A DNA stretch of 16,180 bases. It comes from a virus. Taxonomy: Duplodnaviria; Heunggongvirae; Uroviricota; Caudoviricetes. The notes under the pieces were generated by a model. It was given only the letters and a program-made list of their open reading frames with translations, was not told the origin of the DNA and searched no databases. Each line of letters opens with the position of its first letter. Positions within the stretch are counted from its first letter, which is position 1. Location of the stretch: the IMG/VR virus record IMGVR_UViG_2529292886_000014, positions 1-16,180 of that record. The stretch is one strand, 5' to 3'. A program made the position numbers and the translations under genes. Of this stretch, positions 1 to 13,642 are shown piece after piece.

Positions 1-1230
1 ATGAGCAGATCACTTAACAAACTGAGCGATACACTGCTAAGGAAAATCAACGGCACACCCGCCCAAAAAACAGCCTTTCTTAATGACGGTGGAAACCTGA
101 GCGTCAGGCATTCAACCAGTGGCCTTTTAACCTGGTATTTCACTTACAGGGCCGGAACGGGAAGGGGGGCACCACCGGAACGCATTAAGCTGGGAAATTA
201 TCCTGATCTGAGCCTGAAATCAGCCAGGGAAAAAGCCGCCCAGTGTCGCGCATGGCTGGCTGAGGGGAAAAATCCACGTCATGAGATGAATTACACCGTA
301 CAGGAAGCGTTAAAGCCGGTAACGGTTGGCGATGCGCTCACCTACTGGCTTGAGTCGTACGCAAAGGAAAACCGTGTGGATTATGACCCACTGAAAAAGC
401 GGCTAAATAATCACGTAATACAGCACATTGGCCCTATGCCGCTGGATAAATGCGAGCTACGGCACTGGCTGGCCTGTTTTGATCGGGTGGCAAAGAAAGC
501 CCCTGTTTCCGCCGGGTTCCTGCTACAGACATGCAAGCAGGCGCTTAAGTTCTGCAGGAAGCGGCGCTATGCAATCAGCAACGTTCTTGATGATATGAGT
601 GTGGCGGACGTTGGGAAAAAACCGGATATAAGTGAGCGTGTCTTAAGTAACAAAGAACTTGGCGAATTATTGCAGGCACTGGACAAAAAAATATTTTCCC
701 CTTACTACGTCGCACTAATCCGCCTCCTGATTGTTTTCGGATGCCGGACAGTAGAACTGAGGTTATCGGAGAGCGGCGAGTGGGATTTTACCGAAATGCT
801 CTGGACCGTGCCGAAAGAACACAGCAAAACGAAGGTGGCAATATTCCGGCCCATACCGGAAGCAATACTGCCGTTCGTCACGCAGCTGGTGGAGCAGAAC
901 AGGCACACGGGCTTATTGCTGGGGGAAGTGAAACAGGAAACAAGCGTGTCGCAGTACGGCAGATTAGCGCACAGGAGGCTAAATCACCCTCACTGGTCAC
1001 TACATGACATCCGGCGCACCTTTACAACGATGCTGAACGATTTAGGCGTGGATCCTCACGTCGTGGAGCAGCTTACAGGCCACCAGATGCCAGGAATGCA
1101 GCGAGTTTATAATCATTCCCGTTATCTGGATGCTAAACGCAATGCGCTGGATATGTGGACGGAGTGGTTAGGGATACTGGCGGGAACACATGAAAACGTA
1201 ACCACGCTACCAGTAGCCAGAAGAAAATAA
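1..1230 (+). CDS. int: Site-specific tyrosine integrase (P4-type, N-terminal arm-binding domain)
   Basis: 409-aa ORF. N-terminus (LSDTLLRKINGTPAQKTAFLNDGGNLSV...YFTYR...IKLGNYPDLSLKSAREKA) resembles the arm-binding domain of P4-like integrases. C-terminus has HDIRRTF, LTGHQ and a Y in NHSRY, consistent with the R-H-R-Y catalytic set. Window starts exactly at its ATG. Confidence 0.9.
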   Translation: MSRSLNKLSDTLLRKINGTPAQKTAFLNDGGNLSVRHSTSGLLTWYFTYRAGTGRGAPPERIKLGNYPDLSLKSAREKAAQCRAWLAEGKNPRHEMNYTVQEALKPVTVGDALTYWLESYAKENRVDYDPLKKRLNNHVIQHIGPMPLDKCELRHWLACFDRVAKKAPVSAGFLLQTCKQALKFCRKRRYAISNVLDDMSVADVGKKPDISERVLSNKELGELLQALDKKIFSPYYVALIRLLIVFGCRTVELRLSESGEWDFTEMLWTVPKEHSKTKVAIFRPIPEAILPFVTQLVEQNRHTGLLLGEVKQETSVSQYGRLAHRRLNHPHWSLHDIRRTFTTMLNDLGVDPHVVEQLTGHQMPGMQRVYNHSRYLDAKRNALDMWTEWLGILAGTHENVTTLPVARRK

Positions 1231-1594: not shown

Positions 1595-1783
1595 GTGTTA
1601 AGCACTGATCGGTTTATACGTGAAAAAGAATGCGAAAAACTAACCGGCCTTAGCCGTACGTGTCGCTACCGCCTGGAAAAGGCCGGACAATTCCCATCAC
1701 GTCGTAAACTTGGCGGTCGTTCCGTTGGCTGGTCTTTATCCGAGGTTCTGGCCTGGAAGGATAGCTGCAAGGCAGTTCATTAA
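1595..1783 (+). CDS. alpA: AlpA-family phage regulatory protein (excisionase-like HTH)
   Basis: 62-aa ORF with GTG start at 1595 preceded by SD AGGGGG (1584-1589). Sequence ...LTGLSRTCRYRLEKAGQFPSRRKLGGRSVGWSLSEVLAWK matches the AlpA/Xis-type HTH pattern (recalled, not searched). Position directly after int is typical of P4-like elements and PICIs. Confidence 0.8.
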   Translation: MLSTDRFIREKECEKLTGLSRTCRYRLEKAGQFPSRRKLGGRSVGWSLSEVLAWKDSCKAVH

Positions 1784-1929
1784 TCACGCTGGCGGCACGC
1801 AGCCGCCACACATCAATCATCTGAACACAGAGCTATAACCATGAAGATTGAATATACGCCAGAACGTGGGCGGGGATTCGTTCGCCCTGGTGAAACTGAA
1901 AAACAACAAAATTGGGGTTTTTCAGGCAT

Positions 1930-1957
1930 AAAAAAAGCGGCCCCGAAATGGAGCCGC
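1930..1957 (-). terminator. Rho-independent terminator for the minus-strand RHH operon
   Basis: Minus-strand RNA reads GCGGCUCC-AUUUC-GGGGCCGC (8-bp stem, one G-U wobble) followed by UUUUUUU (plus-strand A-run 1930-1936). It sits about 95 bp downstream of the minus-strand ORF ending at 2053 and before the converging alpA. Confidence 0.55.
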
Positions 1958-2052
1958 CTTTCTGAACAGATAACCCGCTGCGCCGTTTGTGTGTGTGATT
2001 CCAAACATAAGAACGGCAATGATAGCCGCTATCAGGCTGGTGGGCAATGCAA

Positions 2053-2226
2053 TCAGTCTGGTTCAGTTCGTTGCCATACCTGCAATGAGCGCGTTTCCCT
2101 GTACTCTTTAAGGAATTGCTCAAGGGCAAAAGCACATGGCGCGAATCTTTCTGATTCATGCTCTATCTTTCTGCGCCGTCTTTTCCGTGCCGGTGATAAT
2201 GTTTTGGTCAATTCTTTATCGGTCAT
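2053..2226 (-). CDS. Hypothetical small basic protein (57 aa), second gene of the RHH operon
   Basis: Minus-strand ORF MTDKELTKTLSPARKRRRRKIEHESERF... Start taken at the second ATG (2224-2226), preceded by AGGA at about 7 nt. Lies between the RHH gene and the minus-strand terminator. No recognisable family; could be non-coding. Confidence 0.3.
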   Translation of the reverse strand: MTDKELTKTLSPARKRRRRKIEHESERFAPCAFALEQFLKEYRETRSLQVWQRTEPD

Positions 2227-2283
2227 TGTGTTGTCCTGCATAGCAATGCGCCGTAATACCTTACACCACGGCGCTGATGGTGA

Positions 2284-2589
2284 TTACTCTGGTTCTTTGG
2301 TCTTGCGGCGCTGGAGTTCTTCACGTGCGACAGTGACGAGCTGCCCGATCTCCTCGGCGGCTTTGATTCCGAGTTTTTCCACCTGCGCCAGTGCATCGAG
2401 CGAAGAAACCAGGGGATTTTCTCCACTTCCTTCTGCCTGGCGCCGGGCGATCTCACCGCGTACAGCCGTAACTATAAAATTCGCTTTAGTTTCCCCTGGC
2501 TGTAGGGATGCCTCAATGCCACTCACTACTTCATGTGGAAATCTGGCATTCAGTTGCTGTGACTTATTGTTAACAGAACTCCTGGACAT
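2284..2589 (-). CDS. Arc/Mnt-like ribbon-helix-helix DNA-binding protein (putative satellite repressor)
   Basis: Start ATG at 2587-2589 (minus) preceded by SD GGAGGT with 6-nt spacing. 101-aa product MSRSSVNNKSQQLNARFPHEVVSGIEASLQPGETKANFIVTAVRGEIARRQ...; the LNARFPHEV...ANFIVTAVRGEI block parallels the Arc N-terminus (FNLRWPREV...). The track ORF (2284..2769) carries a 60-codon N-terminal extension judged spurious. Confidence 0.65.
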   Translation of the reverse strand: MSRSSVNNKSQQLNARFPHEVVSGIEASLQPGETKANFIVTAVRGEIARRQAEGSGENPLVSSLDALAQVEKLGIKAAEEIGQLVTVAREELQRRKTKEPE

Positions 2590-2632
2590 GTTTGCACCTC
2601 CCATTAATAACGGGATGCAGTGTAATACAAAA

Positions 2633-2686
2633 GTGAATACCAAAAAAGACTTGAAATGGTATTCACCTAAATGTAATGTGAATACC
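2633..2686. promoter_or_regulatory. Operator-like array of three 9-bp half-sites between divergent transcription units
   Basis: GTGAATACC at 2633-2641, its reverse complement GGTATTCAC at 2658-2666, and GTGAATACC again at 2678-2686. Located 44-97 bp upstream of the RHH start codon and about 110 bp upstream of the first plus-strand gene (2795). Confidence 0.45.
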
Positions 2687-2794
2687 ACAAGTGCTGATAC
2701 ATGCAATTCAGCAATTGAAACGACGAAGCCCCGCACTGTTGGAGCAGTAACGGGGCTTCTAACCACCAACGATAACGAGAGTATCGAGGTAGCT

Positions 2795-2998
2795 ATGAGA
2801 AATCATACCACACACCCGCAAGGGCGGGACCCGCACAACCTGAATAAATACATCTGGCGTTTTATCGCCCTGAGTACGGCACAACCGCGCGTGATTACCA
2901 TTGAGGCCAGCAGCGAACAGGAAGCACGCCAGCAATCCCCGGCTGGCTGCGTGATGGTATTCGCCGCCCGTATTCGTCAGGGGGTGTTCCATGCCTGA
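2795..2998 (+). CDS. Small protein (67 aa), possibly Icd-like cell-division inhibitor family
   Basis: ATG at 2795 with SD GAGG at 2786-2789. Product MRNHTTHPQGRDPHNLNKYIWRFIALSTAQPRV...VMVFAARIRQGVFHA. The THPQG and IWRF/FAARI motifs resemble my recollection of 'Icd-like' small proteins of P4-like prophages (unverified). Stop overlaps the next start (ATGCCTGA). Confidence 0.4.
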   Translation: MRNHTTHPQGRDPHNLNKYIWRFIALSTAQPRVITIEASSEQEARQQSPAGCVMVFAARIRQGVFHA

Positions 2999-3311
2999 CA
3001 TGACCAATTACCAGTACCTGATTAATCCGCATTTTAACTGTGAGCATGATATTGCTAAAAAGGTTTATTCCGCTGCTGATGGGGCTACTGACAATATATC
3101 AATGGCTGTTGCCTCAATTGGTAACCTGATGTGGTATGCGTCAGAAAATGAGGAATATGACGAAAAGGCCATGCGCATTGACATGGGGAATATTGGCTTG
3201 TTACTGGCAATGCTTGGGCAGTTTGATATTTCGTTACGGTGCACCATTGAAAATGCCGCAGATGCATTAAATGCCATAAAGAAAGCGAATACTGATTCAA
3301 ATCGGGGATAA
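2991..3311 (+). CDS. Hypothetical protein (106 aa)
   Basis: ORF with SD AGGGGG about 6 nt upstream; start/stop overlap with the preceding gene. No family recognised. Confidence 0.55.
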   Translation: MPDMTNYQYLINPHFNCEHDIAKKVYSAADGATDNISMAVASIGNLMWYASENEEYDEKAMRIDMGNIGLLLAMLGQFDISLRCTIENAADALNAIKKANTDSNRG

Positions 3312-3317
3312 ATAATC

Positions 3318-3617
3318 ATGAGAACATATTTATCTGGCTTGACTGCCAGCGGTTATGCACACCCTAAAATTATCCCCGGCGCTATTTATCTGGATAAGAA
3401 CGGTAACAGAGTAACGGTAAAAGAACTGATGTTTGACCGTGTGTATTTTATTCGTGATGGCTATTCATTTCATAGTTCGCTGAACGTGGAGATCTTTATT
3501 AGCAGATTCCGGCGGGAAATCCCGACTTCCAGAAATAACCATGTGTCACGTGTGGATGTGGATAAAAAACTACAGGAACTGAAAAACATGATTGCCTCGT
3601 GGAGAGAGCAGAAATGA
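3318..3617 (+). CDS. Hypothetical protein (99 aa)
   Basis: ORF starting 7 nt after the previous stop. Its stop overlaps the primase start (ATGA at 3614-3617). No family recognised. Confidence 0.55.
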   Translation: MRTYLSGLTASGYAHPKIIPGAIYLDKNGNRVTVKELMFDRVYFIRDGYSFHSSLNVEIFISRFRREIPTSRNNHVSRVDVDKKLQELKNMIASWREQK

Positions 3618-5431
3618 AAAAAGCGCCAAATTTAAAACACCAGCCACGTGACAAAATGACGGAAGTCATCATTTTTGCGGGTAGTGATGCGTGGGCACAT
3701 GCGAAGCAGTGGCAGGAACAGGACGGGCGACTGGCTGGCGATAACGTGCCACCTGTCTGGCTTGGAGAGCAACAACTTGCCGAACTGGACAACCTGCAAA
3801 TCGTACCGGACGGACGCTATCGCGTGCGTCTCTACCAGGCGGGGTTATTGCGTCCTGGGCTTGTTAATACCATCGGGCAGAAACTGGCAGCGGCAGGTGT
3901 CAGGGATGCTGATTATTATCCTGAAGGAATGCACAGCCAGAAACGGGAGAACTGGCGCGAATATCTGGAACGTGAGCGGGGAGAGCTGGCGGAAAAGAAA
4001 AAGGTAGTTGAACTGCCTGTAAAGAAAAAAGAGCGGGTAAAAGACGATAACGCTTCATCACTGGCGCTTAACCAGATGGGAGCAAGTCAACGCGGCGAAG
4101 TTCTCCTGGCACATTATGGCGGGGAACTGGCGATTCATGCCGACTCTGACACTGTTCACCATTACAACGGCGTTATATGGGAGCCGGTTCAGGATAAAGA
4201 ATTACAGCGAGCTATGGCACAGATTTTCATTGATGCGGAGATCAGCTATTCGCAGAACGCCATTAAATCGGCGGTCGATACCATGAAGTTAAGTTTGCCT
4301 GTAATGGGGAATACAGCCCGTAACCTGATTGGATTCAGTAACGGGGTATTTGATACCAGAACAGGTAATTTTCGGGAGCATAACAAAAACGACTGGTTGT
4401 TAATTGCCAGTGAATTACCTTTCAGCCCACCAGCAGAGGGGGAAACGCTGGCAACACATGCGCCGAATTTCTGGAAGTGGTTACGCCGTTCGGTGGCTGA
4501 GAATGACCGCAAGGCGGATCGCGTACTGGCTGCATTATTCATGGTGCTGGCGAACCGGTACGACTGGCAGTTATTCATTGAGGTAACAGGTCCAGGGGGA
4601 AGTGGTAAAAGCGTGATGGCGGAGATTTGCACCATGCTGGCGGGTAAGGCCAACACAGTATCGGCAAGCATGAAGGCGCTGGAAGATGCAAGGGAACGCG
4701 CGTTAGTGGTTGGCTTTTCGCTGATTATCATGCCGGATATGACCCGCTACGCTGGTGATGGGGCAGGGATTAAGGCTATTACAGGCGGTGACAAGGTGGC
4801 AATTGACCCGAAACACAAAGCCCCCTACTCAACGCGTATTCCGGCAGTAGTGCTGGCGGTTAACAATAACGCCATGTCATTCAGTGACCGCAGCGGGGGG
4901 ATCTCACGTCGTCGGGTGATATTCAATTTTTCGGAAGTTGTACCGGAGAACGAACGCGATCCAATGCTGGCGGAAAAAATAGAAGGTGAGCTGGCGGTAG
5001 TGATTCGCCATCTGCTTACACGGTTTGCTGACCAGGACGAAGCCAGACGCCTGTTATATGAGCAGCAGAAATCTGAAGAAGCACTGGCGATAAAGCGAGA
5101 GGGGGATTCGCTGGTGGACTTCTGCGGCTATCTCATGGCGTCGGTAATGTGTGATGGCCTGTTAGTGGGTAATGCTGAAATTGTACCATTCAGCCCACGC
5201 AGGTATCTCTATCATGCCTATCTGGCTTATATGCGGGCACATGGGTTTGGTAAACCTGTAACACTGACGCGCTTCGGTAAAGATATGCCGGGGGCAATGG
5301 CGGAATATGGCAGGGAGTATATGAAACGGAAAACGAAGCACGGTTTGCGTTCAAACGTGACACTGACGGAGGAATCAGAAGACTGGATGCCATCATGTGT
5401 ATCGGTCACTAATGACGATAGCAAAAATTAA
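3614..5431 (+). CDS. P4 alpha-like primase-helicase (replication initiator)
   Basis: About 605 aa from the ATG at 3614 (SD GGAGAGAG at 3601-3608); the track ORF begins at an upstream GTG (3599). Walker A motif GPGGSGKS in the C-terminal half, consistent with the P4-family primase C-terminal NTPase domain (recalled). Immediately followed by TGTTCACC iterons, the sequence bound by P4 alpha. Confidence 0.85.
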   Translation: MKKAPNLKHQPRDKMTEVIIFAGSDAWAHAKQWQEQDGRLAGDNVPPVWLGEQQLAELDNLQIVPDGRYRVRLYQAGLLRPGLVNTIGQKLAAAGVRDADYYPEGMHSQKRENWREYLERERGELAEKKKVVELPVKKKERVKDDNASSLALNQMGASQRGEVLLAHYGGELAIHADSDTVHHYNGVIWEPVQDKELQRAMAQIFIDAEISYSQNAIKSAVDTMKLSLPVMGNTARNLIGFSNGVFDTRTGNFREHNKNDWLLIASELPFSPPAEGETLATHAPNFWKWLRRSVAENDRKADRVLAALFMVLANRYDWQLFIEVTGPGGSGKSVMAEICTMLAGKANTVSASMKALEDARERALVVGFSLIIMPDMTRYAGDGAGIKAITGGDKVAIDPKHKAPYSTRIPAVVLAVNNNAMSFSDRSGGISRRRVIFNFSEVVPENERDPMLAEKIEGELAVVIRHLLTRFADQDEARRLLYEQQKSEEALAIKREGDSLVDFCGYLMASVMCDGLLVGNAEIVPFSPRRYLYHAYLAYMRAHGFGKPVTLTRFGKDMPGAMAEYGREYMKRKTKHGLRSNVTLTEESEDWMPSCVSVTNDDSKN

Positions 5432-5442
5432 ACTTATGGAAT

Positions 5443-5667
5443 AACTGTTCACCACTGTTCACCCTGTCATAAATATCTTTTATATCAGTATATTATAGGG
5501 TGAACAGTTATTTATGAACTGTTCACCAAACTATTCACTGTTCACCTTTTTGATTGTTTATTGAGCTTCAAGGGTGAACAGTGGTGAACAGTTGGTGAAT
5601 AGTTTTTGTGAAACTGTTCACCCATTAACATTATGAATTAAAAGATAAAATATCAAAAGGTGAACAG
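5443..5667. repeat. Iteron array, putative origin of replication (P4 ori/crr-like)
   Basis: About 10 copies of the core TGTTCACC / GGTGAACA (often extended to AACTGTTCACC) in both orientations within 225 bp of AT-rich DNA: 5443-5453, 5454-5463, 5499-5509, 5517-5527, 5536-5546, 5573-5582, 5583-5593, 5594-5604 (degenerate), 5612-5622, 5659-5667. Confidence 0.75.
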
Positions 5668-5718
5668 GTGAAGGGTTAAAACGCAAAAATTTTAATTTAC
5701 TGCTGTGAGATAAAGCCT

Positions 5719-5964
5719 ATGACAGCGAAGCACACAAAAAAATCACAATCGCACGCCCTTGATTTGACGGAACACTGGTTAAGGGTGTCGATAAAAATCA
5801 TCGACCGCAACGCCGGGGAAGGATATGCGAAAGCACATCCCGAACTAATAAGCGCATTCATGACCACGGCGGCGGCAAACTTTGCCACGCTGACGGAACG
5901 GGAGATTGCCGAAGCGGAACAGGTAACAACCATCAACGTTAAAACCGGAGAGGTGGAATCATGA
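5719..5964 (+). CDS. Hypothetical protein (81 aa)
   Basis: ORF between the iteron origin and ssb. Its stop overlaps the ssb start (ATGA), suggesting translational coupling. No family recognised. Confidence 0.5.
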   Translation: MTAKHTKKSQSHALDLTEHWLRVSIKIIDRNAGEGYAKAHPELISAFMTTAAANFATLTEREIAEAEQVTTINVKTGEVES

Positions 5965-6371
5965 CAGCACAGATAGCCGCTTACGGGCGGCTGGTGGACG
6001 ACCCGCAGGTAAAACAGACCAGCAAGGGCACACCGATGACGCTGGCGCGTATGGCGGTCCCCCCTCCGTGCAGCCAGGCAGATGACGGAACGGCGACGAT
6101 GTGGTTATCCGTCCTGGCATTTGGCAGACAGGCCGAAGCACTGGCAAGGCACCGCAAGGGTGAACTCCTGAGCGTGGCGGGTAACATGCAGATCAGCCAG
6201 TGGACCGGACAGAACGGGGAAACACTGCAGGGTTATCAGGTTATTGCAGACAGCGTAATCAGTGCCCGCGCGGCACGTCCTGGCGGGAACAGACGCAAAA
6301 CCACAGGCACACAGGGTAATCAGCCACCAGCGGGAGGCGATGACCCTTACGGTGACGGTATTCCGTTCTGA
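5961..6371 (+). CDS. ssb: Single-stranded DNA-binding protein (SSB-like)
   Basis: SD GGAGG at 5948-5952. OB-fold-like pattern G.L..DP.V...G...W..V..FG..AE.....RKG...G...W....G that parallels E. coli SSB, a Gly/Pro/Gln-rich linker, and the C-terminal tail ...DDPYGDGIPF (compare SSB ...DDDIPF). Confidence 0.75.
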   Translation: MTAQIAAYGRLVDDPQVKQTSKGTPMTLARMAVPPPCSQADDGTATMWLSVLAFGRQAEALARHRKGELLSVAGNMQISQWTGQNGETLQGYQVIADSVISARAARPGGNRRKTTGTQGNQPPAGGDDPYGDGIPF

Positions 6372-6381
6372 GGGGGTGACG

Positions 6382-6654
6382 ATGGTACATGACCGCATAG
6401 CGGAAGAACTCGAGGCGAAAGGCTTTTACCGGAGGGCGGCGGCGCGATGGGGTGAAGTCATGCAGCTGGTGGAGACAGACAAGGAACGGCATCACATCAC
6501 GATGCGACGGCTGGAATGTTGCAGGAAGGCACAGAGGCCACCGGAGCCACCGGATAATTACGGAGACCTGAAAAAGGCAGTCGATCGCACTTATGCCGAA
6601 ATGGGGATAGATGGTGCTGGTGATGAAATATGGCGCAATTACCAGGACAGCTAA
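6382..6654 (+). CDS. PerC-family-like small transcriptional regulator (90 aa)
   Basis: ATG at 6382 preceded by SD GAGGGGGTG. The N-terminal motif AEELEAKGFYRRAAARWGEVM resembles the PerC/Pch family signature as I recall it (unverified). The track ORF 6262..6654 overlaps ssb and is judged N-terminally over-extended. Confidence 0.5.
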   Translation: MVHDRIAEELEAKGFYRRAAARWGEVMQLVETDKERHHITMRRLECCRKAQRPPEPPDNYGDLKKAVDRTYAEMGIDGAGDEIWRNYQDS

Positions 6655-6660
6655 TCACAC

Positions 6661-6684
6661 AGCCGGAGAAATCCGGCTTTTTTT
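6661..6684 (+). terminator. Rho-independent terminator
   Basis: AGCCGGA-GAAA-TCCGGCT followed by TTTTTTT, directly after the stop at 6654. Confidence 0.7.
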
Positions 6685-6779
6685 GCACCAGTTGAAACGG
6701 TATGGCGCATTACCGGGTTTTCGTCACGGTCTGGCATAGTTACTATCTGAAACAAACAGACACAACAGAGGAAAAAACA

Positions 6780-7004
6780 ATGCCGATGAAATTTGATGAG
6801 ATATTAAAACAGCGTGATAAATACCATGCTGACAACATGGAGACGATGAGCATCAATGATTACCGCGCATTCCTGGAGACGGGCGCACTGATTGAAAAGG
6901 ATCAGCATGGTTTTGTTAGATGTGCTCTATCCGGTGAAATGCTGGCGGTAAATCCTGAACAGATAGATGCAATGATAGAATTTCTGAAAGGGATCAGGGA
7001 CTGA
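6780..7004 (+). CDS. Hypothetical small protein (74 aa) in a terminator-bracketed cassette
   Basis: ATG at 6780 preceded by SD GAGGAAAA. The track ORF begins at an upstream ATG (6702) with no SD. Flanked by the two near-identical terminators. Confidence 0.5.
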   Translation: MPMKFDEILKQRDKYHADNMETMSINDYRAFLETGALIEKDQHGFVRCALSGEMLAVNPEQIDAMIEFLKGIRD

Positions 7005-7013
7005 GCACGCATA

Positions 7014-7036
7014 CAGCCGGAGCAATCCGGCTTTTT
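7014..7036 (+). terminator. Rho-independent terminator (near-duplicate of 6661-6684)
   Basis: AGCCGGA-GCAA-TCCGGCT followed by TTTTTGTCATTTTTTG. Same stem as the upstream terminator, different loop. Confidence 0.7.
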
Positions 7037-7056
7037 GTCATTTTTTGTAAATTATT

Positions 7057-7083
7057 TGTTCGTGGTTGTTCCACGTTGTTCAC
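7057..7083. promoter_or_regulatory. Dyad element TTGTT-CGTGG-TTGTT-CCACG-TTGTT upstream of the head operon
   Basis: CGTGG (7061-7065) and CCACG (7071-7075) are reverse complements, separated and flanked by TTGTT. A half-copy TTGTTCCACGTTGTT recurs at 14581-14595. Confidence 0.35.
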
Positions 7084-7263
7084 TGACAGGATCGGCATAT
7101 TTTACCCGAACTGAATCATGATTATTCTCGCCCGTGGTGCCAGGACGCTGGGGCCATTTTTCCCGCCTGTTAATGTGTTCACCAATATTCATTCATTACC
7201 AGGCGGGAAAGCAATCGGTGCGTTTACTGATTTCCTTATGAAAAAGCGTTGAGTTTTTGCCGC

Positions 7264-7300
7264 GTCCTGGAGTTCCTTACTTAACCCCAGGACTTTTTTT
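7264..7300 (+). promoter_or_regulatory. Hairpin plus T-run abutting the capsid gene start (possible attenuator or RBS-sequestering structure)
   Basis: GTCCTGG (7264-7270) and CCAGGAC (7287-7293) form a 7-bp stem with a 16-nt loop, followed by TTTTTTT (7294-7300) and the capsid ATG at 7301. The only SD-like AGGA lies inside the right arm of the stem. Confidence 0.3.
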
Positions 7301-8458
7301 ATGCCGAGAATAATCGAATTACGCCAGCAGAAAACCGCCATTAAAAATCAGATGCGCGACATGCTGGAGAACGCGGAAAAAGAAAACCGCAGCCTTAACG
7401 ATGCAGAGGGCGCAAAATTTGACGAATTACGCGCTAAAGCTGAATCCCTCGATAAAGACATTTCCCGCCTTGAAGCCATTGCAGACGAAGAGCGCAGCAA
7501 GCCAGGTAAAAGCAGCCAGACCACTGACCCGGCAGAACTCCGCAACTACATCCTGACAGGTGAAACCCGCGCATTAAGTACAGGTGTCCCCGCTGATGGT
7601 GGTTATACCGTTATCCCTGAACTGAACACCGAAATCATGCGAATGCTGGCGGATGAGTCCACCATGCGCCGCATCTGTACCGTGAAAAAAATCAGCAGCA
7701 ACGAGTTTAAGCAGCTTGTTTCCGCTGGCGGTGCGGTCGTTAACCACGGTGAAGAGGGTAAGGCACGCGAACAGACCAGCACCCCGCAGATTAACGAGGT
7801 GAGCATTAAGCTGTATCCGGTCTATGCGTACCCGCGCACCACACAGGAAATCGTGGATTTTTCCGATGTGGACATCCTTTCATGGCTGACGGGCGAGATT
7901 GGCGACACCTTCACGGAAACCGAAGAAAGTGATCTGGTTGTGGGCGACGGTGACAAAAAAGCAAAAGGTTTTTTATCCGTACCCCGTGCAGAGAAGAACG
8001 ACAAAGAACGTGATTTCGGAACGTTGCAGGTTATCAAGCCCGTTGATGATCTTGCCTGGACATCTGCGGACCCGCTGATCGATCTGAAATTTGCATTACG
8101 TAAAAAATACCGCAAGAACGCGGTATGGGTGGTTAACTCCACGACGGCGGCAAAACTCCAGAAGGTGAAGAATGCGAACGGGGATTATATATGGCGTGAC
8201 CGTTTACAGGCGGGTGATCCTGACACATTGCTGGGCCTTCCGGTCGAATATCTGGAGTTTATGCCGGATAACGTTATTGCCCTGGGCGACTTTAAACGCG
8301 GTTACTACATCGTTGATCACGAAACAGGTGTTCGCACCAGACCGGACAACCTGACAGAACCAGGATTCATCAAAATTTTCACGCAAAAATATTTAGGCGG
8401 TGGCGTGGTGGATTCGAACGCGATCAAGATTCTGGAACTGCCACAGGACGACGATTAA
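7301..8458 (+). CDS. Major capsid protein, HK97 fold, with N-terminal coiled-coil delta/scaffold-like domain
   Basis: 385 aa. The N-terminal ~100 aa are charged and helical (RQQKTAIKNQMRDMLENAEKENRSLNDAEGAKFDELRAKAESLDKDISRLEAIADEE). The C-terminal part LLGLPVEYLEFMPDNVIALGDFKRGYYIVDHETGVRTRPDNLTEPGFIKIF fits the HK97-family capsid pattern (recalled). Confidence 0.9.
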   Translation: MPRIIELRQQKTAIKNQMRDMLENAEKENRSLNDAEGAKFDELRAKAESLDKDISRLEAIADEERSKPGKSSQTTDPAELRNYILTGETRALSTGVPADGGYTVIPELNTEIMRMLADESTMRRICTVKKISSNEFKQLVSAGGAVVNHGEEGKAREQTSTPQINEVSIKLYPVYAYPRTTQEIVDFSDVDILSWLTGEIGDTFTETEESDLVVGDGDKKAKGFLSVPRAEKNDKERDFGTLQVIKPVDDLAWTSADPLIDLKFALRKKYRKNAVWVVNSTTAAKLQKVKNANGDYIWRDRLQAGDPDTLLGLPVEYLEFMPDNVIALGDFKRGYYIVDHETGVRTRPDNLTEPGFIKIFTQKYLGGGVVDSNAIKILELPQDDD

Positions 8459-8468
8459 CAGCATACAG

Positions 8469-8497
8469 AAGGGGCTAAAAAGCCCCTTTAGTGTTTT
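8469..8497 (+). terminator. Intrinsic terminator/attenuator downstream of the capsid gene
   Basis: AAGGGGCT-AAAA-AGCCCCTT followed by the T-rich tail TAGTGTTTTATG, between the capsid stop (8458) and the protease start (8514). Confidence 0.55.
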
Positions 8498-8513
8498 ATG
8501 GGTGAAAAAAATT

Positions 8514-9071
8514 ATGAAGAGTATGGAAATCCGGTCATCGGAAATCACCACCAGCGCCAGCAACACGCTTACAGGCTACGTTGTTCGCTGGGATAACCTT
8601 TCGGAACTGTTATGGGGGGAGTTTTACGAAAAATTCCAGCGGGGGGCGTTTACTGAGTGGCTTGCGGCGGGTAATGACGTTCGCGGCCTGTATGAGCATG
8701 ACCACAGCATGTTACTGGGGCGCACCCGTTCCGGCACGCTGAAACTGGAAGAGGACGACACAGGGTTACGCTTTGAACTTACCCCACCGGATACCAGCAC
8801 AGGGCGTGACGTTATCGAACTGGTTAAACGTGGTGATATATCCGGCATGAGCTTTGGCTTTCGTTCCCGTAAGGATGTATGGGATACCACAACAGATCCA
8901 TGCGTGCGCACCGTGCTGGTGGCGGAACTGTACGAAATTACCGTTACATCCGTACCGGCTTACCCCGATTCCGGCGTGGAGCTGGCCCGCCGTTCCCTGT
9001 ATGAGCAGCACCCCGAAAAAATGCCGCGTGCGGATAATCGCCGCTGGTGGGCGGATTTAGCGGGGGTGTGA
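8514..9071 (+). CDS. Prohead maturation protease, HK97 family
   Basis: 185 aa from the ATG at 8514 (the track ORF is extended to 8400 across the terminator). Motifs TGYVVRWDN, GLYEHD and GMSFGF match the HK97 prohead protease family (recalled). Confidence 0.85.
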   Translation: MKSMEIRSSEITTSASNTLTGYVVRWDNLSELLWGEFYEKFQRGAFTEWLAAGNDVRGLYEHDHSMLLGRTRSGTLKLEEDDTGLRFELTPPDTSTGRDVIELVKRGDISGMSFGFRSRKDVWDTTTDPCVRTVLVAELYEITVTSVPAYPDSGVELARRSLYEQHPEKMPRADNRRWWADLAGV

Positions 9072-9072
9072 T

Positions 9073-10284
9073 ATGTGGCCTTTCAGAAGAAAAAAAGAGC
9101 AGCGCAGCATGACGCTTGATGAATTTATGGCGCTGGCTGGCACATCGAACACGGGGGCGGGTGAGTACGTATCATCGGGGACAGCGGAATCACTCCCCGC
9201 CGTCATGAACGCCGTCACGGTCATCTCTGAGGCGGTGGCTACTATGCCATGCTACCTGTACCTGGTACGCAATGAGAAGGGGAAGGAGGCCCGCGAGTGG
9301 CTTGATTCTCATCCGGTCGATCATATCCTCAACGAGCGCCCGAACGCATGGCAAACCCCCTACCAGTTTAAGCGAATGATGATCCGCCACTGCCTGTTAA
9401 ACGGTAATGCTTACGCGGTGATTCAGTGGGGGCGTGATGGTTTTCCGGCGGCTTTACATCCTTACCCGCCGCAGTCGGTGAACGTGGAGCAGACAGGAGA
9501 ACACAACTGGCGCTATTGCATCACTGACGCCTACACCGGAAACACCCGCAACTATTTACCGTGGGAAGTACTTCACCTTCGTTACTCCACGGATGACGGC
9601 TTTATGGGGCGCTCACCTGTAACCATCTGCCGCGAATCGCTGGGGCTTGGGCTGGCCCAACAACGCCACGGCGCGAGCGTGATGCGTGATGGCATGATGG
9701 CGGCAGGGGTTATCACGTCAGGCGAATGGCTGGACGGCGTGAAAGGCAAACAGGCATTAGCCGCACTGGAACGCTATAAAGGGGCCAAAAACGCCGGAAA
9801 AACGCCCATCCTTGAAGGGGGCATGAGTTACCAGCAGCTGGGCATGAGTAACCAGGACGCCGAATGGCTGGCCTCCCGTCGCTTCACCATTGAAGACATC
9901 GCCCGAATGTTCAACGTCTCGCCGATTTTTCTGCAGGAATACAGCAACAGCACCTACAGCAATTTCAGCGAGGCAAGCCGCGCATTTCTCACCATGACGA
10001 TGCGCCCGTGGCTGGCGAACTTTGAGCAGCAGATAAAAAACGCCTTGCTGGTGGTCTCGCCTGTACCTGGTATCCGGTATCAGGTGGAGTTTGACAGCGC
10101 GGACCTGTTACGGGCCACACCTGGCGAACGCTTTGCCACCTATGAGCGAGGCATCAAATCCGGTGTTATGTGCCCGAACGAAGCCCGCGAACGAGAAGGG
10201 TTGTCTCCGCGTGATGGTGGTGATGAGTTCAGCCAGGCATGGAAACAGGAAGTAAAAATCAGCGAGGGAGAAAAACCGGAATGA
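9073..10284 (+). CDS. Portal protein, HK97 family
   Basis: 403 aa. Motifs NERPNAWQTPYQF, LLNGNAYAVI, GRSPV, EDIARMFNVSPIFL and NEAREREGLSP...GGD follow the HK97-family portal pattern (recalled). Starts 2 nt after the protease stop. Confidence 0.85.
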   Translation: MWPFRRKKEQRSMTLDEFMALAGTSNTGAGEYVSSGTAESLPAVMNAVTVISEAVATMPCYLYLVRNEKGKEAREWLDSHPVDHILNERPNAWQTPYQFKRMMIRHCLLNGNAYAVIQWGRDGFPAALHPYPPQSVNVEQTGEHNWRYCITDAYTGNTRNYLPWEVLHLRYSTDDGFMGRSPVTICRESLGLGLAQQRHGASVMRDGMMAAGVITSGEWLDGVKGKQALAALERYKGAKNAGKTPILEGGMSYQQLGMSNQDAEWLASRRFTIEDIARMFNVSPIFLQEYSNSTYSNFSEASRAFLTMTMRPWLANFEQQIKNALLVVSPVPGIRYQVEFDSADLLRATPGERFATYERGIKSGVMCPNEAREREGLSPRDGGDEFSQAWKQEVKISEGEKPE

Positions 10285-10619
10285 ACATAGGGCGACTGCG
10301 TGACAGGGTAACGATTCAGACCCTGAAACAGACCAGAGCCATGACGGGCGAAATACTCGAAACGTGGGAGGACGGTCACACACTCTGGGCAAGCGTGAAC
10401 ATGGTCAGCAGCAAGGAGGCCATTTCATCGGGTGCAGAGCTGGCGATTGGTACCGTAAGGATCTGGATACGGTACCGGAAGGACATCAACGCCACCAGCC
10501 GGATAAAGGTCAATACGGGGCCGCTGGCGGGGCGTGTACTGAATATCATCGGGCAGCCGCTGCCGGATGCCGCCAGGACACGCCTTGAAATTCTTTGTCG
10601 TGAGGGCGCGGAAAAATGA
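10281..10619 (+). CDS. Head-closure / head-tail joining protein (HK97 gp7-like)
   Basis: 112 aa from the ATG at 10281 (SD GAGGGAG; ATGA overlap with the portal stop). The N-terminus MNIGRLRDRVTIQ matches the head-tail joining family motif (recalled). Confidence 0.75.
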   Translation: MNIGRLRDRVTIQTLKQTRAMTGEILETWEDGHTLWASVNMVSSKEAISSGAELAIGTVRIWIRYRKDINATSRIKVNTGPLAGRVLNIIGQPLPDAARTRLEILCREGAEK

Positions 10620-10912
10620 CAGAAGAACTTATCACCCTAGAAGAAGTGAAACTCCATTGCCGCATCGATGGCGACGAGGAAGACCAGTTAATCAGCGGAT
10701 ACATTGCCGCATCGCTTGAGGCGTGCCAGATACACATAGGCAGGCGCTTTGATGACGGGCTGGAGTTCACGCCAGCCATAAAGATTGGCTGCATGATGTT
10801 TATCGCTCACCTGTATGAGAATCGCCAGATTGTCGCGGATAACGCAAAAACACACGTACCCATGACGATTGGCGCACTCTGGACGGCTTACCGTGATGTG
10901 GGGGTGTACTGA
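10616..10912 (+). CDS. Head-tail connector protein (gp6-like)
   Basis: 98 aa. N-terminus MTEELITLEEVKLHCRIDGDEEDQLISGYIAASLEACQIHIGRRF matches the gp6-like connector signature (recalled). Confidence 0.8.
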   Translation: MTEELITLEEVKLHCRIDGDEEDQLISGYIAASLEACQIHIGRRFDDGLEFTPAIKIGCMMFIAHLYENRQIVADNAKTHVPMTIGALWTAYRDVGVY

Positions 10913-11352
10913 TGCCGTGGCAACCATTAAGACGATGTACAGAACCAGGCTGCAACAGGCGCGTGAAGTCCGGCAAGTGTGAGGAGCACAGACGCAGCGC
11001 ACGCCAGCAGCAGGACAGCCGGAGAGGCAGCAGCAGGGAGCGAGGGTATACGAGGCAGTGGGAGAAATACCGCGCCATGTATCTGAGTAAAAACCCGTTA
11101 TGTGCGCATTGCCTGGAAAAAGGAATATACACGCCCGCCGTGGTGGTGGATCACATTATCCCAATCGATGGCGGTAATGATGTTCTCTTCTGGCCTGAGT
11201 GGAATCATCAGCCATTGTGCCAGGCGTGTCATAACCAGAAAACGAAATGGCTTGATCCGTCCACAAAAAACAAGCGTGCTGCGGGTGGATTCCGTGAGGA
11301 GGAAGAACGGGCCGCTAACCGCAATAACTGGATGTATGGCGCTGATGAATGA
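10912..11352 (+). CDS. HNH endonuclease (terminase-associated)
   Basis: 146 aa. CxxC pairs (CTEPGC, CAHC) and the HNH core VVDHIIPIDGGNDV...NHQPLCQACHNQKT. Start overlaps the previous stop (TGATG). Sits directly upstream of terS/terL. Confidence 0.9.
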   Translation: MPWQPLRRCTEPGCNRRVKSGKCEEHRRSARQQQDSRRGSSRERGYTRQWEKYRAMYLSKNPLCAHCLEKGIYTPAVVVDHIIPIDGGNDVLFWPEWNHQPLCQACHNQKTKWLDPSTKNKRAAGGFREEEERAANRNNWMYGADE

Positions 11353-11640: not shown

Positions 11641-11997
11641 ATGGCAAGACCACCGAAAGCCCCCGCCTACCTGGATGATATCGCCGTGAAGCAGTGGCGG
11701 GAAAAATCGCGGCAGCTTGCGGAGCGGGGAGACCTGACCCCCGCCGACTGGAGCAATCTGGAACTGTATTGCGTCAACTACTCCATTTACCGGAAAGCCG
11801 TTGCAGACCTTGCGGCGCGCGGGTTCAGCATTGTTAACAGTCAGGGCGGCGAGAGCAGAAACCCCGCATTAAGCGCAAAATCCGACGCTGAAAGGGTGAT
11901 GATAAAAATGGCCTCCTTGCTTGGTTTTGACCCGATAAGCCGCCGTAAAAATCCACCGGAAACAGAAGAAGAGGACGAGCTTGACCGCCTGGAATAA
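11641..11997 (+). CDS. terS: Terminase small subunit (P27-family-like)
   Basis: 118 aa. Pattern MARPPKAP.YLDD.A...W......L...G.LT.AD...LE.YC..Y..YRKA...L...G....N..G....NPA......A...M.K.A..LGF.P..R matches the P27-type small terminase (recalled). Confidence 0.9.
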   Translation: MARPPKAPAYLDDIAVKQWREKSRQLAERGDLTPADWSNLELYCVNYSIYRKAVADLAARGFSIVNSQGGESRNPALSAKSDAERVMIKMASLLGFDPISRRKNPPETEEEDELDRLE

Positions 11998-13642
11998 GTA
12001 CGCAGAAGACGTAAAAACGGGCAAAATTCCGGCCTGTAAACGGCTGAAACAGGCCGTTAAACGGTACTTTTCGGACCTTGAAAGCCCCCTTTACACGTTC
12101 GATCGTGAGGTTGTGGAGCGGTTTATTGCCTTTTCCAGGGTGTGCCCGCACGTAAAAGGGCCGATGCGTGGCAGACCCATTGAGCTGGAGCCGTGGCAGC
12201 AGTTCGCCTTTGCGTGCATCCTCGGCTTTAAGGTTAAGGCCACCGGACGGCGCAAATACACGAGCGCCTTTATCGAAGTGCCGCGCAAAAATGCGAAATC
12301 CACGACCGCCGCGATTCTGGCTAACTGGTTTCTGATTATGGAGAACGGTCAGCAGGATATCTACACCGCAGCGGTGAGCCGTGACCAGGCGCGGATCGTC
12401 TTTGATGATGCGCGTCAGATGTGCCTTTTATCCCGACCGTTACGCAGGCGGGTGAATATTCAGGCGCATAAGGTGATACACCCGAAAAGCAACAGCCTGT
12501 TAAAGCCGCTGACAGGAAAAGCGGCAACCATCGAGGGAACAAACCCCAGCCTTTCCATCGTGGACGAATACCACTTGCACCCCGATAACGGCGTTTATTC
12601 CGCGCTTGAGCTGGGGATGGGCGCACGTCCCGAAGGGCTGTTATTTGCCATTACCACATCAGGCAGCAACGTCGTTTCAGCCTGTAAGCAGCACTATGAT
12701 TATTGCTGTCAGATCCTGGACGGCGAAGAGGTCAACGATTCAATTTTTGTACTGATTTACGAACTGGACGACGAAAACGAGGTTGATGATCCGGCGATGT
12801 GGATAAAGGCTAACCCTAACATCGATGTTTCCGTGGATCGTGAAAAACTGGCCTCAACCATCCAGAAAGCGCGGGGTATTCCGTCGCAGTGGGTGGAGAT
12901 GATGACAAAGCGATTTAATATCTGGTGTCAGGGGACTACCCCGTGGATGGGTAATGGTGCATGGGCTGAGTGTGCCGGAACGTTCACGGAGGAAGATTTA
13001 CACGGTCAGGAGTGTTACGCGGGGCTGGACTTATCATCAACCAGCGATATTTCCAGCGTGTGCTATGCCTTTCCGGTCGGTAAAAATATCATGCTGGTTT
13101 CCCGTCATTATCTGCCGGAGTTCCAGCTACAGAACCCCGCCAATAAAAACCGCGCTGTCTATCGCCAGTGGGCTAAAGCGGGCTGGATACGCACAACGCC
13201 AGGTGACTGCATTGATTACGACCGGATCAGAGATGACATCATGCAGGACGCGGAGAAATTTAATATCAGGCTGGTGGGCTTTGATACGTGGAACGCCACG
13301 CATCTCAGGACGCAATTACAGGGGGCTGGTTTTGAGGTGGAGCCGTTCCCGCAAACCTACCTCAGATTCAGTCCGGCGGCGAAATCGTTCGAAGTTTTTG
13401 TTAACCGCAGGGTGATTGTGCATCGTGGCGATCCGGTGTTGTCCTGGTCGATGAGTAACGTCGTGATGCAGAGTGACGCGAATGCCAATATCAAGCCGAA
13501 CAAGAAAAAATCACCGAACAAGATAGACCCGGGCGTGGCGGCACTGATGGCGTTTGGTACATTCCAGGCAGAGCATGAGGATTTTGCTTTTGATATAAGC
13601 GACAGCCACCGCCAGAAACTGGAAGAATTTAGCGGGGTGTAA
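11981..13642 (+). CDS. terL: Terminase large subunit
   Basis: 553 aa. The track start is a TTG at 11981 preceded by GAGGA and overlapping the terS end; the true start is uncertain. Walker-A-like VPRKNAKST, an acidic ATPase motif SIVDEYH, and a C-terminal nuclease-like region fit large terminases. Confidence 0.9.
   Translation: MTAWNKYAEDVKTGKIPACKRLKQAVKRYFSDLESPLYTFDREVVERFIAFSRVCPHVKGPMRGRPIELEPWQQFAFACILGFKVKATGRRKYTSAFIEVPRKNAKSTTAAILANWFLIMENGQQDIYTAAVSRDQARIVFDDARQMCLLSRPLRRRVNIQAHKVIHPKSNSLLKPLTGKAATIEGTNPSLSIVDEYHLHPDNGVYSALELGMGARPEGLLFAITTSGSNVVSACKQHYDYCCQILDGEEVNDSIFVLIYELDDENEVDDPAMWIKANPNIDVSVDREKLASTIQKARGIPSQWVEMMTKRFNIWCQGTTPWMGNGAWAECAGTFTEEDLHGQECYAGLDLSSTSDISSVCYAFPVGKNIMLVSRHYLPEFQLQNPANKNRAVYRQWAKAGWIRTTPGDCIDYDRIRDDIMQDAEKFNIRLVGFDTWNATHLRTQLQGAGFEVEPFPQTYLRFSPAAKSFEVFVNRRVIVHRGDPVLSWSMSNVVMQSDANANIKPNKKKSPNKIDPGVAALMAFGTFQAEHEDFAFDISDSHRQKLEEFSGV

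Follow-up and report, generated by a model that had tools for sequence, protein, structure and literature searches.

The replication initiator alpha of the satellite P4 combines a DnaG-type primase, a superfamily 3 (SF3) helicase and a winged helix (PMC2777425), and the RefSeq record of P4 (NC_001609) lists six 'ori type 1 repeats' at 9310-9413, arranged as three minus-strand copies (spacings 10 and 11), a plus-strand copy after 22 and, after 43, two further minus-strand copies 10 apart. Among the phage-inducible chromosomal islands (PICIs), EcCICFT073 provides the closest experimental precedent, as its pri-rep-ori segment kept a temperature-sensitive plasmid at the restrictive temperature only with both parts intact (Fillol-Salom et al. 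2018, PMC6092414) and a cosmid equipped with this ori depended for its replication on the 'primase' supplied in trans (bioRxiv 10.1101/2022.09.30.509847). A capsid-forming family of such islands (cf-PICIs; prototype EcCIEDL933), which shares a size of ~14 kb with the element studied here, has been described subsequently (Alqurainy et al. 2023, cited after 10.1101/2025.02.11.637232). The present work concerns a stretch of 16,180 nucleotides, IMG/VR record IMGVR_UViG_2529292886_000014, which in the following is called the window (A+T average 49%) and which carries a cf-PICI. Its segment 5440-5677 is very likely the vegetative replication origin of this island, with the open reading frame (ORF) 3614-5431, in the following termed Rep, as the corresponding initiator. 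This assignment builds on observed repeat statistics, homologies and conservation and on an architecture seen to be shared, whereas Rep-dependent autonomous replication was shown for the homologue EcCICFT073 Pri-Rep/ori (49% identical over the whole protein) and would hold for the window allele by analogy.

The 8-mer at issue, TGTTCACC/GGTGAACA, occurs in 11 exact copies within the window as compared to 0.56 copies expected from 200 dinucleotide shuffles, the maximum of which was 3. Nine of these copies are located, in both orientations, within 5446-5666 (all module sites of Table 1 apart from the three named next), and they are joined by one degenerate copy with a single mismatch (TATTCACC, 5594-5601, minus strand) and by two copies with two mismatches each (TATTCACT, 5532-5539, and CCTTCACC, 5667-5674, minus strand). 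Together the nine exact and three degenerate copies span 5446-5674, with the first one starting 15 nt past the rep stop codon. An earlier note on this DNA, made from its letters only, had reported about ten copies in both orientations at 5443-5667 directly after the stop of this ORF, as well as single copies inside the gene and in the capsid leader, and the motif count bears out both statements, the latter copies being real and located at 4153-4160 and 7176-7183 on the plus strand. Outside 5446-5674 the window holds just these two isolated copies and no second iteron cluster, nor does it hold any P4 type-2 repeats. A literature search on TGTTCACC alone returned primer sequences only.

Arranged as 2+1+3 / 3+1+2, the twelve sites make up a left and a right module with six iterons apiece, one being the mirror image of the other. 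Within the left module the start-to-start spacings are 10, 43, 21, 12 and 7 (pattern ++ / - / +++), and within the right module they are 10, 11, 21, 44 and 8 (pattern --- / + / --). Neighbouring sites are therewith spaced by 7-44 bp, most of them by 10-11, 21 or 43-44 bp, i.e., near whole helical turns. Each module holds a spacer of 35-36 bp with 80-86% A+T, and the dyad between the modules is confirmed by an imperfect inverted repeat (I1, 5474-5529 / 5592-5647), the 56-nt arms of which are 75% complementary. Conservation was assessed with ten relatives possessing the same iteron and initiators 75-95% identical to that of the window, among which the base of the window is kept in 88% of cases in the iteron columns as compared to 66% in the other origin columns. 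Further, the modules of the window, of vB_KppS-Ant, of EcCICFT073, of P4 ori and of P4 crr can be aligned with each other, whereby the left module of the window aligns with the reverse-complemented P4 ori module and with its left counterpart in EcCICFT073. The layout is that of a PICI-type origin (Fillol-Salom et al. 2018), located directly 3' of the initiator gene and with two iteron sets flanking A+T-rich DNA (73-86%). The proposal of the earlier note that the cluster is an iteron-type origin gains support from the identity of the 8-mer with the P4 type-1 repeats, from the adjacent alpha-like helicase and binding domain and from the homologous EcCICFT073 replicon.

Rep is composed of an N-terminal module, a D5_N domain, an SF3 helicase core and an origin-binding domain (Table 1). 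The helicase core includes a Walker A motif (GPGGSGKS, 4589-4612) and an arginine cluster (RRR, 4907-4915), while the best structural match of the C-terminal domain, PDB entry 1KA8, is the crystal structure of the origin-binding winged helix of P4 alpha. When compared with phage genomes (tblastn), residues 145-595 align to alpha residues ~320-771 with 50% identity and nothing aligns before residue 145. The identities differ markedly along the protein: the helicase region is 51% identical to alpha residues 320-665 and 46% identical to EcCICFT073 Pri-Rep, for the origin-binding domain the respective values are 49% and 35%, and the first 144 residues are 66% identical to EcCICFT073 Pri-Rep and unrelated to alpha. 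The designation 'P4 alpha-type primase', given to this ORF by the earlier note, is not supported: the D5_N/SF3 helicase and the 1KA8-type origin-binding domain are present, but the zinc-ribbon/Toprim primase is not, as neither a Pfam family nor an alignment to alpha was obtained for the N-terminal part. Judged by its sequence, the window protein is thus one that keeps two of the three functional parts of alpha and is devoid of the primase part.

The pairing of the binding domain with the iterons is supported by the fact that the iteron sequence and the wing region co-vary across alleles. The TGTTCACC class comprises the window, E. coli O26 and other E. coli, Klebsiella, Raoultella, Kluyvera, Pluralibacter and P4; the TGTCTACC class comprises EcCICFT073, E. 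ruysiae, K. georgiana and E. hormaechei; and a third class with TGTCCGCC or TGTCCACC was found in Serratia. The origin-binding domains diverge chiefly in a segment which reads KRKTKHG-LRSNVTL and is common to the window and P4 alpha, and the wing motif KR.TK.G..(S/T)N.TL is common to the window, alpha and the other aligned proteins of the TGTTCACC class. In the other iteron classes all six aligned proteins differ at the wing motif and five of the six possess a 5-residue insertion, with EcCICFT073 combining TGTCTACC iterons and a divergent wing sequence without this insertion. As a side observation, the insertion (…CTRGPDKGR… / …KKKATRGR…), present in five loci at the position corresponding to window 5324-5365, goes along with the switch from TGTTCACC to TGTCTACC or TGTCCGCC.

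Taking this together, a model for initiation can be suggested, in which the C-terminal winged helix of Rep would recognise the TGTTCACC iterons, whereby one SF3 helicase hexamer may be loaded per module, i.e., six origin-binding domains on six iterons. Two hexamers placed head-to-head would then open up the A+T-rich DNA and unwind it bidirectionally, in a manner resembling that of P4 alpha at ori and of further SF3 initiators whose origins have dyad symmetry, and the second, mirrored module is proposed to take the place of the distant crr of P4. Primers most likely come from host DnaG, since Rep possesses neither the zinc ribbon nor the Toprim catalytic motifs, and the single-stranded DNA-binding protein (SSB) encoded by the island may assist.

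Several points weigh against the assignment of origin and initiator. Binding, hexamer stoichiometry, melting site and primer source are all inferred for the window allele, and the match between six iterons and one hexamer hinges on the two weak sites with two mismatches each (5532 and 5667). Furthermore, the cluster located downstream of alpha in P4 is crr and not ori, so that position alone would suggest an auxiliary site. The cluster could be a crr-like auxiliary (enhancer) site with the true origin being located elsewhere in the island, since in P4 crr is found immediately downstream of alpha with ori 4.5 kb away and the first part of each window module aligns with the crr repeats. Only a slim chance is assigned to this explanation, as no second cluster exists in the window, as module order and spacing fit P4 ori (10, 11, 22, 43, 10) and not crr (9, 43, 18, 14), and as the equivalent EcCICFT073 segment together with Pri-Rep suffices for replication. 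Finally, neither a sigma-70 promoter nor a terminator was found between rep and the cluster, and for this reason the cluster region is probably transcribed through and a regulatory role is possible. Iteron-binding initiators autoregulate in many plasmids, and the repeats might accordingly be mainly an operator array, by which the initiator or another protein regulates transcription from rep into orf81-ssb-perC and the capsid genes; the one-directional transcription of the island and the missing terminator would suit such a function. We nevertheless consider this improbable, as the promoter scan gave no sigma-70-like promoter anywhere in 5300-7400, as the architecture is homologous to the experimentally validated EcCICFT073 origin and to the annotated P4 ori, and as the cluster travels with the rep allele and not with the downstream genes. 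The idea that the cluster is the packaging (cos/pac) recognition site of the small terminase of the island has next to no probability: repeat arrays can bind TerS and the island has its own TerS and TerL, but for vB_KppS-Ant, a related induced particle of the Klebsiella type, the record of the linear genome starts 22 nt ahead of terS and thus at a great distance from the iteron cluster of this particle (11721-11949), and the repeats fit the specificity of a replication-initiator domain. The packaging role was rejected on the ground that this particle genome begins beside terS.

With the vegetative origin thus being the preferred assignment for the cluster, the two isolated copies were considered separately as possible auxiliary sites coupling replication with late expression, a role which the earlier note had suggested for the copy near the head operon. 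Each of them matches the 8-mer exactly; the copy at 4153, inside the gene, also has the preferred 5' flank 'AC', and the copy at 7176 is located in the leader of the capsid operon. At an expectation of 0.56 copies per window, the Poisson probability of two stray ones amounts to ~0.11, and they are hence not significant in themselves. At the 4153 site the amino acids are kept in relatives, while the synonymous third positions vary (ACTGTTCACT, ACCGTTCACC, ACGGTTCACC, ACGGTTCATC), and even relatives with 95% and 89% identity in this region no longer have the motif intact; in other relatives an exact copy is found elsewhere in the gene, at a position which in the window deviates by one mismatch. 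The 7176 copy occurs only in the window and in one relative 99% identical over the region. Elsewhere this site, which resides in a variable hairpin loop, reads TTCTCGCC in relatives of the same rep/iteron type and TGCTCGCC in one with a RepA-type initiator, so its sequence does not track the rep type. Both copies are lost in relatives that are 89-95% identical here and keep the same origin iterons. Given this loss, the neutral type of variation and the chance-level number, the suggested function was not borne out and is regarded as highly improbable.

The capsid-operon leader itself (7125-7300, plus strand) was observed to be a strongly structured RNA (-62.6 kcal/mol, z = -4.9), with a long conserved hairpin at 7158-7211 and a terminator-like hairpin followed by U7 that ends exactly at the capsid ATG (7301). 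The upstream CCAGGACGC (7141-7149) shows complementarity to the 5' arm of this leader terminator, an arrangement suggestive of a switch by which antitermination or attenuation would control the head genes. An Rfam scan of the whole window, leader included, returned no family. Near-identical terminator-like hairpins of the form AGCCGGAG[A/C]AATCCGGCT plus a T run are found at 6661-6678 and 7015-7032 (plus strand), 3' of perC and of a 100-residue ORF (6702-7004), respectively.

The N-terminal module of Rep deserves separate consideration, as it sits where alpha has its primase domain. Residues 1-320 of alpha match Zn_Ribbon_Prim (7e-19) and Toprim_3 (1e-13), whereas residues 1-160 of the window Rep match no Pfam family even at E<=10. 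Comparison of the N-terminal family with the P4-type Toprim profile (hhalign) gave a probability of 0.2%, and a Foldseek search of the N-terminal model against the PDB gave nothing significant. The AlphaFold2 model in question (29 homologues; pLDDT 84.7, pTM 0.78) shows a beta-alpha repeat fold with weak resemblance to Toprim. At the canonical Toprim positions the strands of the window family end in IIFAG and LYQAG, as compared to IIAEG and AADND in a real Toprim (locus L011), and in the family-wide alignment the canonical acidic positions are occupied by A-G and (Y/F/C/I)-x-(A/L)-G, i.e., neither the catalytic Glu nor the DxD motif is conserved anywhere in the N-terminal family. A separate primase gene is likewise not apparent, as no primase, Toprim or AEP family match was obtained among the plus-strand ORFs screened. 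From its sequence, the window Rep is therefore unlikely to act as a primase, and its N-terminal module, as modelled, may be a degenerate Toprim-like fold. Metazoan Twinkle, in which an inactive primase-like domain is joined to a replicative helicase, offers an analogy only, since Twinkle belongs to SF4 and the window protein to SF3 and the fold resemblance is weak.

An exhaustive profile search among 1.84 billion representatives identified 149 members (50%-identity clusters) of the N-terminal family, in nearly all of which the match begins at or close to the N-terminus, and the invariant residues of which include A4, P5, E17, A22, G23 and G77. Full-length members tested join the module to three different cores, namely D5_N/DUF5906/Pox_D5, AAA_25 (RepA-like) and DUF927. 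With the Haemophilus N-terminal domain alone as query, only 3 matches were found. Locus L011 (Enterobacter hormaechei CP169086) was observed to encode a helicase core 89% identical to that of the window but fused to a bona fide Toprim N-terminus, and N-terminal domains have therefore been exchanged on an almost unchanged helicase. A wider proposal can tentatively be put forward, which we hold to be possible though doubtful: the PICI and cf-PICI 'primases' of the whole class might be non-primases, with their N-terminal ~130 residues forming a dead Toprim-derived module that was recombined onto three unrelated cores (SF3/D5-like, RepA/AAA_25, DUF927) and that would serve another purpose, for instance the recruitment of host DnaG, the handling of single-stranded DNA or a joint action with the DUF4222 protein. 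The same tentative proposal includes cross-activation or competition between P4 and cf-PICI origins; a P4-like satellite and a cf-PICI residing in one cell could influence each other in this way because they share the type-1 iteron, a 49%-identical binding domain and the conserved wing motif. Apart from this, some E. coli genomes encode fusion proteins of two kinds, four such proteins having been recorded: one kind links a Rep N-terminus 99% identical to that of the window with SSB (233 residues), and the other (793 residues) combines the greater part of Rep with a portal domain. They look like deletion derivatives of such islands that lost helicase and origin or the middle of the element.

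The element as a whole is a cf-PICI inserted between roxA and phoQ, a location seen in the closest complete E. coli genome (96% identity), and its gene set agrees with the published description of cf-PICIs in all points. It is transcribed in one direction and ordered int, alpA, Icd-like ORF, DUF4222, rep, ori, orf81, ssb, perC, capsid, protease, portal, head completion, connector, HNH, TerS, TerL and chromosomal phoQ. The earlier note had proposed that a satellite replicates here by a P4-like mechanism; a classification as P4-like satellite did not hold, as the island carries an HK97-type head module and as it yielded none of the genes psu, sid, delta and epsilon: the ~20 major plus-strand ORFs screened have other functions or no assignment and gave no Pfam, NCBIfam or PHROGs family match for the first three, and epsilon was likewise not found. 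Neither the 106-residue ORF at 2991-3311 nor the DUF4222 ORF gave a BLASTP alignment with P4 ORF106/Cnr. A 385-residue ORF (1841-2998, plus strand) resembles known families over no more than its ~90 C-terminal residues (Icd-like cell-division inhibitor; PHROG 'transcriptional repressor'), and in relatives the Icd-like gene is a separate ORF of ~66 residues preceded by YlcI/YnfO genes on the minus strand. The long ORF could have arisen by fusion or be artefactual.

Comparison of islands revealed that rep and ori are swapped as a unit between conserved flanks, the cluster tracking the rep allele, which agrees with the gene flow of primase-replicase genes reported between PICIs and cf-PICIs (PMC10085698). 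In other E. coli islands the slot between DUF4222 and ssb holds a 584-residue Pri-Rep with TGTCTACC, a RepA/AAA_25 protein with AAAGTGGGGAG-like repeats or a DUF927 protein. Unlike the window, the O157-type cf-PICI relatives sampled possess a RepA/AAA_25-type initiator in this slot, together with the unrelated AAAGTGGGGAG-like iterons. RepA- and DUF927-type proteins obtained from protein searches were observed to start with the same ~130-residue N-terminal module as the window Rep. A DUF4222 gene is located upstream of every rep allele type examined, EcCICFT073 included. As it overlaps the start of rep and accompanies all three initiator types, the DUF4222 protein and Rep may work together.

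Table 1. Coordinates of the origin, of rep and its domains, of the isolated iterons and of further genes of the island (positions refer to the window).
Feature	Position	Strand	Details
Left origin module	5446-5546	+	six iterons: 5446(+), 5456(+), 5499(-), 5520(+), 5532(+, degenerate), 5539(+)
Right origin module	5573-5674	-	mirror of left module; 5573(-), 5583(-), 5594(-), 5615(+), 5659(-), 5667(-, degenerate)
A+T-rich spacer, left module	5464-5498		80% A+T
Central spacer between modules	5547-5572		26 bp, 73% A+T; axis of imperfect dyad
A+T-rich spacer, right module	5623-5658		86% A+T
rep ('Pri-Rep')	3614-5431	+	605 residues; ATG 3614, stop 5429-5431; N-terminal module, D5_N, SF3 helicase, origin-binding domain
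N-terminal module, residues 1-133	3614-4012	+	at the place of the P4 alpha primase domain; without primase motifs
D5_N, residues 162-291	4097-4486	+	Pfam PF08706, E 5e-13
SF3 helicase core, residues 325-449	4586-4960	+	Pfam DUF5906 and PPV_E1_C; PDB 7OLA primase-helicase, E 2.6e-10
C-terminal winged-helix origin-binding domain, residues 496-593	5099-5392	+	PDB 1KA8, E 1.8e-24 (residues 497-593); Pfam Pox_D5 (residues 496-591)
Isolated TGTTCACC in rep	4153-4160	+	codons Thr-Val-His-His; judged a chance copy
Isolated TGTTCACC in capsid leader	7176-7183	+	118 nt upstream of capsid ATG; hairpin loop; judged a chance copy
int	1-1230		
alpA	1595-1783		
DUF4222 gene	3318-3617	+	Pfam; stop overlaps rep start (ATGA)
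SSB, island-encoded	5961-6371	+	Pfam SSB, E 5e-15; TIGR00621; likely accessory replication factor
Capsid	7301-8458		HK97-type head module
Protease	8400-9071		
Portal	9073-10284		
Head completion	10239-10619		
Connector	10616-10912		
HNH	10912-11352		
TerS	11641-11997		
TerL	11981-13642		

With respect to its implications, the analysis locates, to the base pair, the origin and the initiator of a cf-PICI lineage that is common in E. coli, the 90%-identity protein cluster of this initiator allele alone holding ~3,000 sequences. An origin consisting of the P4 ori iteron module as a mirror pair would offer a concrete picture of how double hexamers of an SF3 initiator may be loaded. Moreover, the widespread annotation 'DNA primase' is corrected, which is relevant to groups that equip engineered phage particles with 'primase-ori' pairs of PICIs as conditional replicons, and the iteron classes (TGTTCACC, TGTCTACC, TGTCCGCC/TGTCCACC) could become a source of conditional origins that are orthogonal to each other. 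These findings leave unchanged how PICI replication is understood in general.

In comparison with P4, the type-1 iteron of P4 ori is identical to TGTTCACC of the window, and with regard to order and spacing P4 ori corresponds to one copy of the window's module, whereas the second half of P4 crr differs from the window modules in its spacings (9, 43, 18, 14). The systems further differ in that P4 has crr directly downstream of alpha and ori 4.5 kb away, while the window has a single composite dyad cluster, and in that alpha possesses a zinc-ribbon/Toprim primase domain which the window protein does not. EcCICFT073 and the window share the roxA/phoQ site, the protein architecture and the order DUF4222, pri-rep, iteron cluster, small ORF, ssb and perC, and the EcCICFT073 origin shows the same 2+1+3 arrangement with its mirror image around A+T-rich DNA directly 3' of rep, but is built from TGTCTACC iterons. 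With regard to head genes, the classical PICI EcCICFT073 possesses capsid and decoration genes of the lambda type, in contrast to the window with its complete module of HK97-type head and terminase genes. The replicon of the window is hence of the already known PICI Pri-Rep/ori kind, using iterons of the P4 type.

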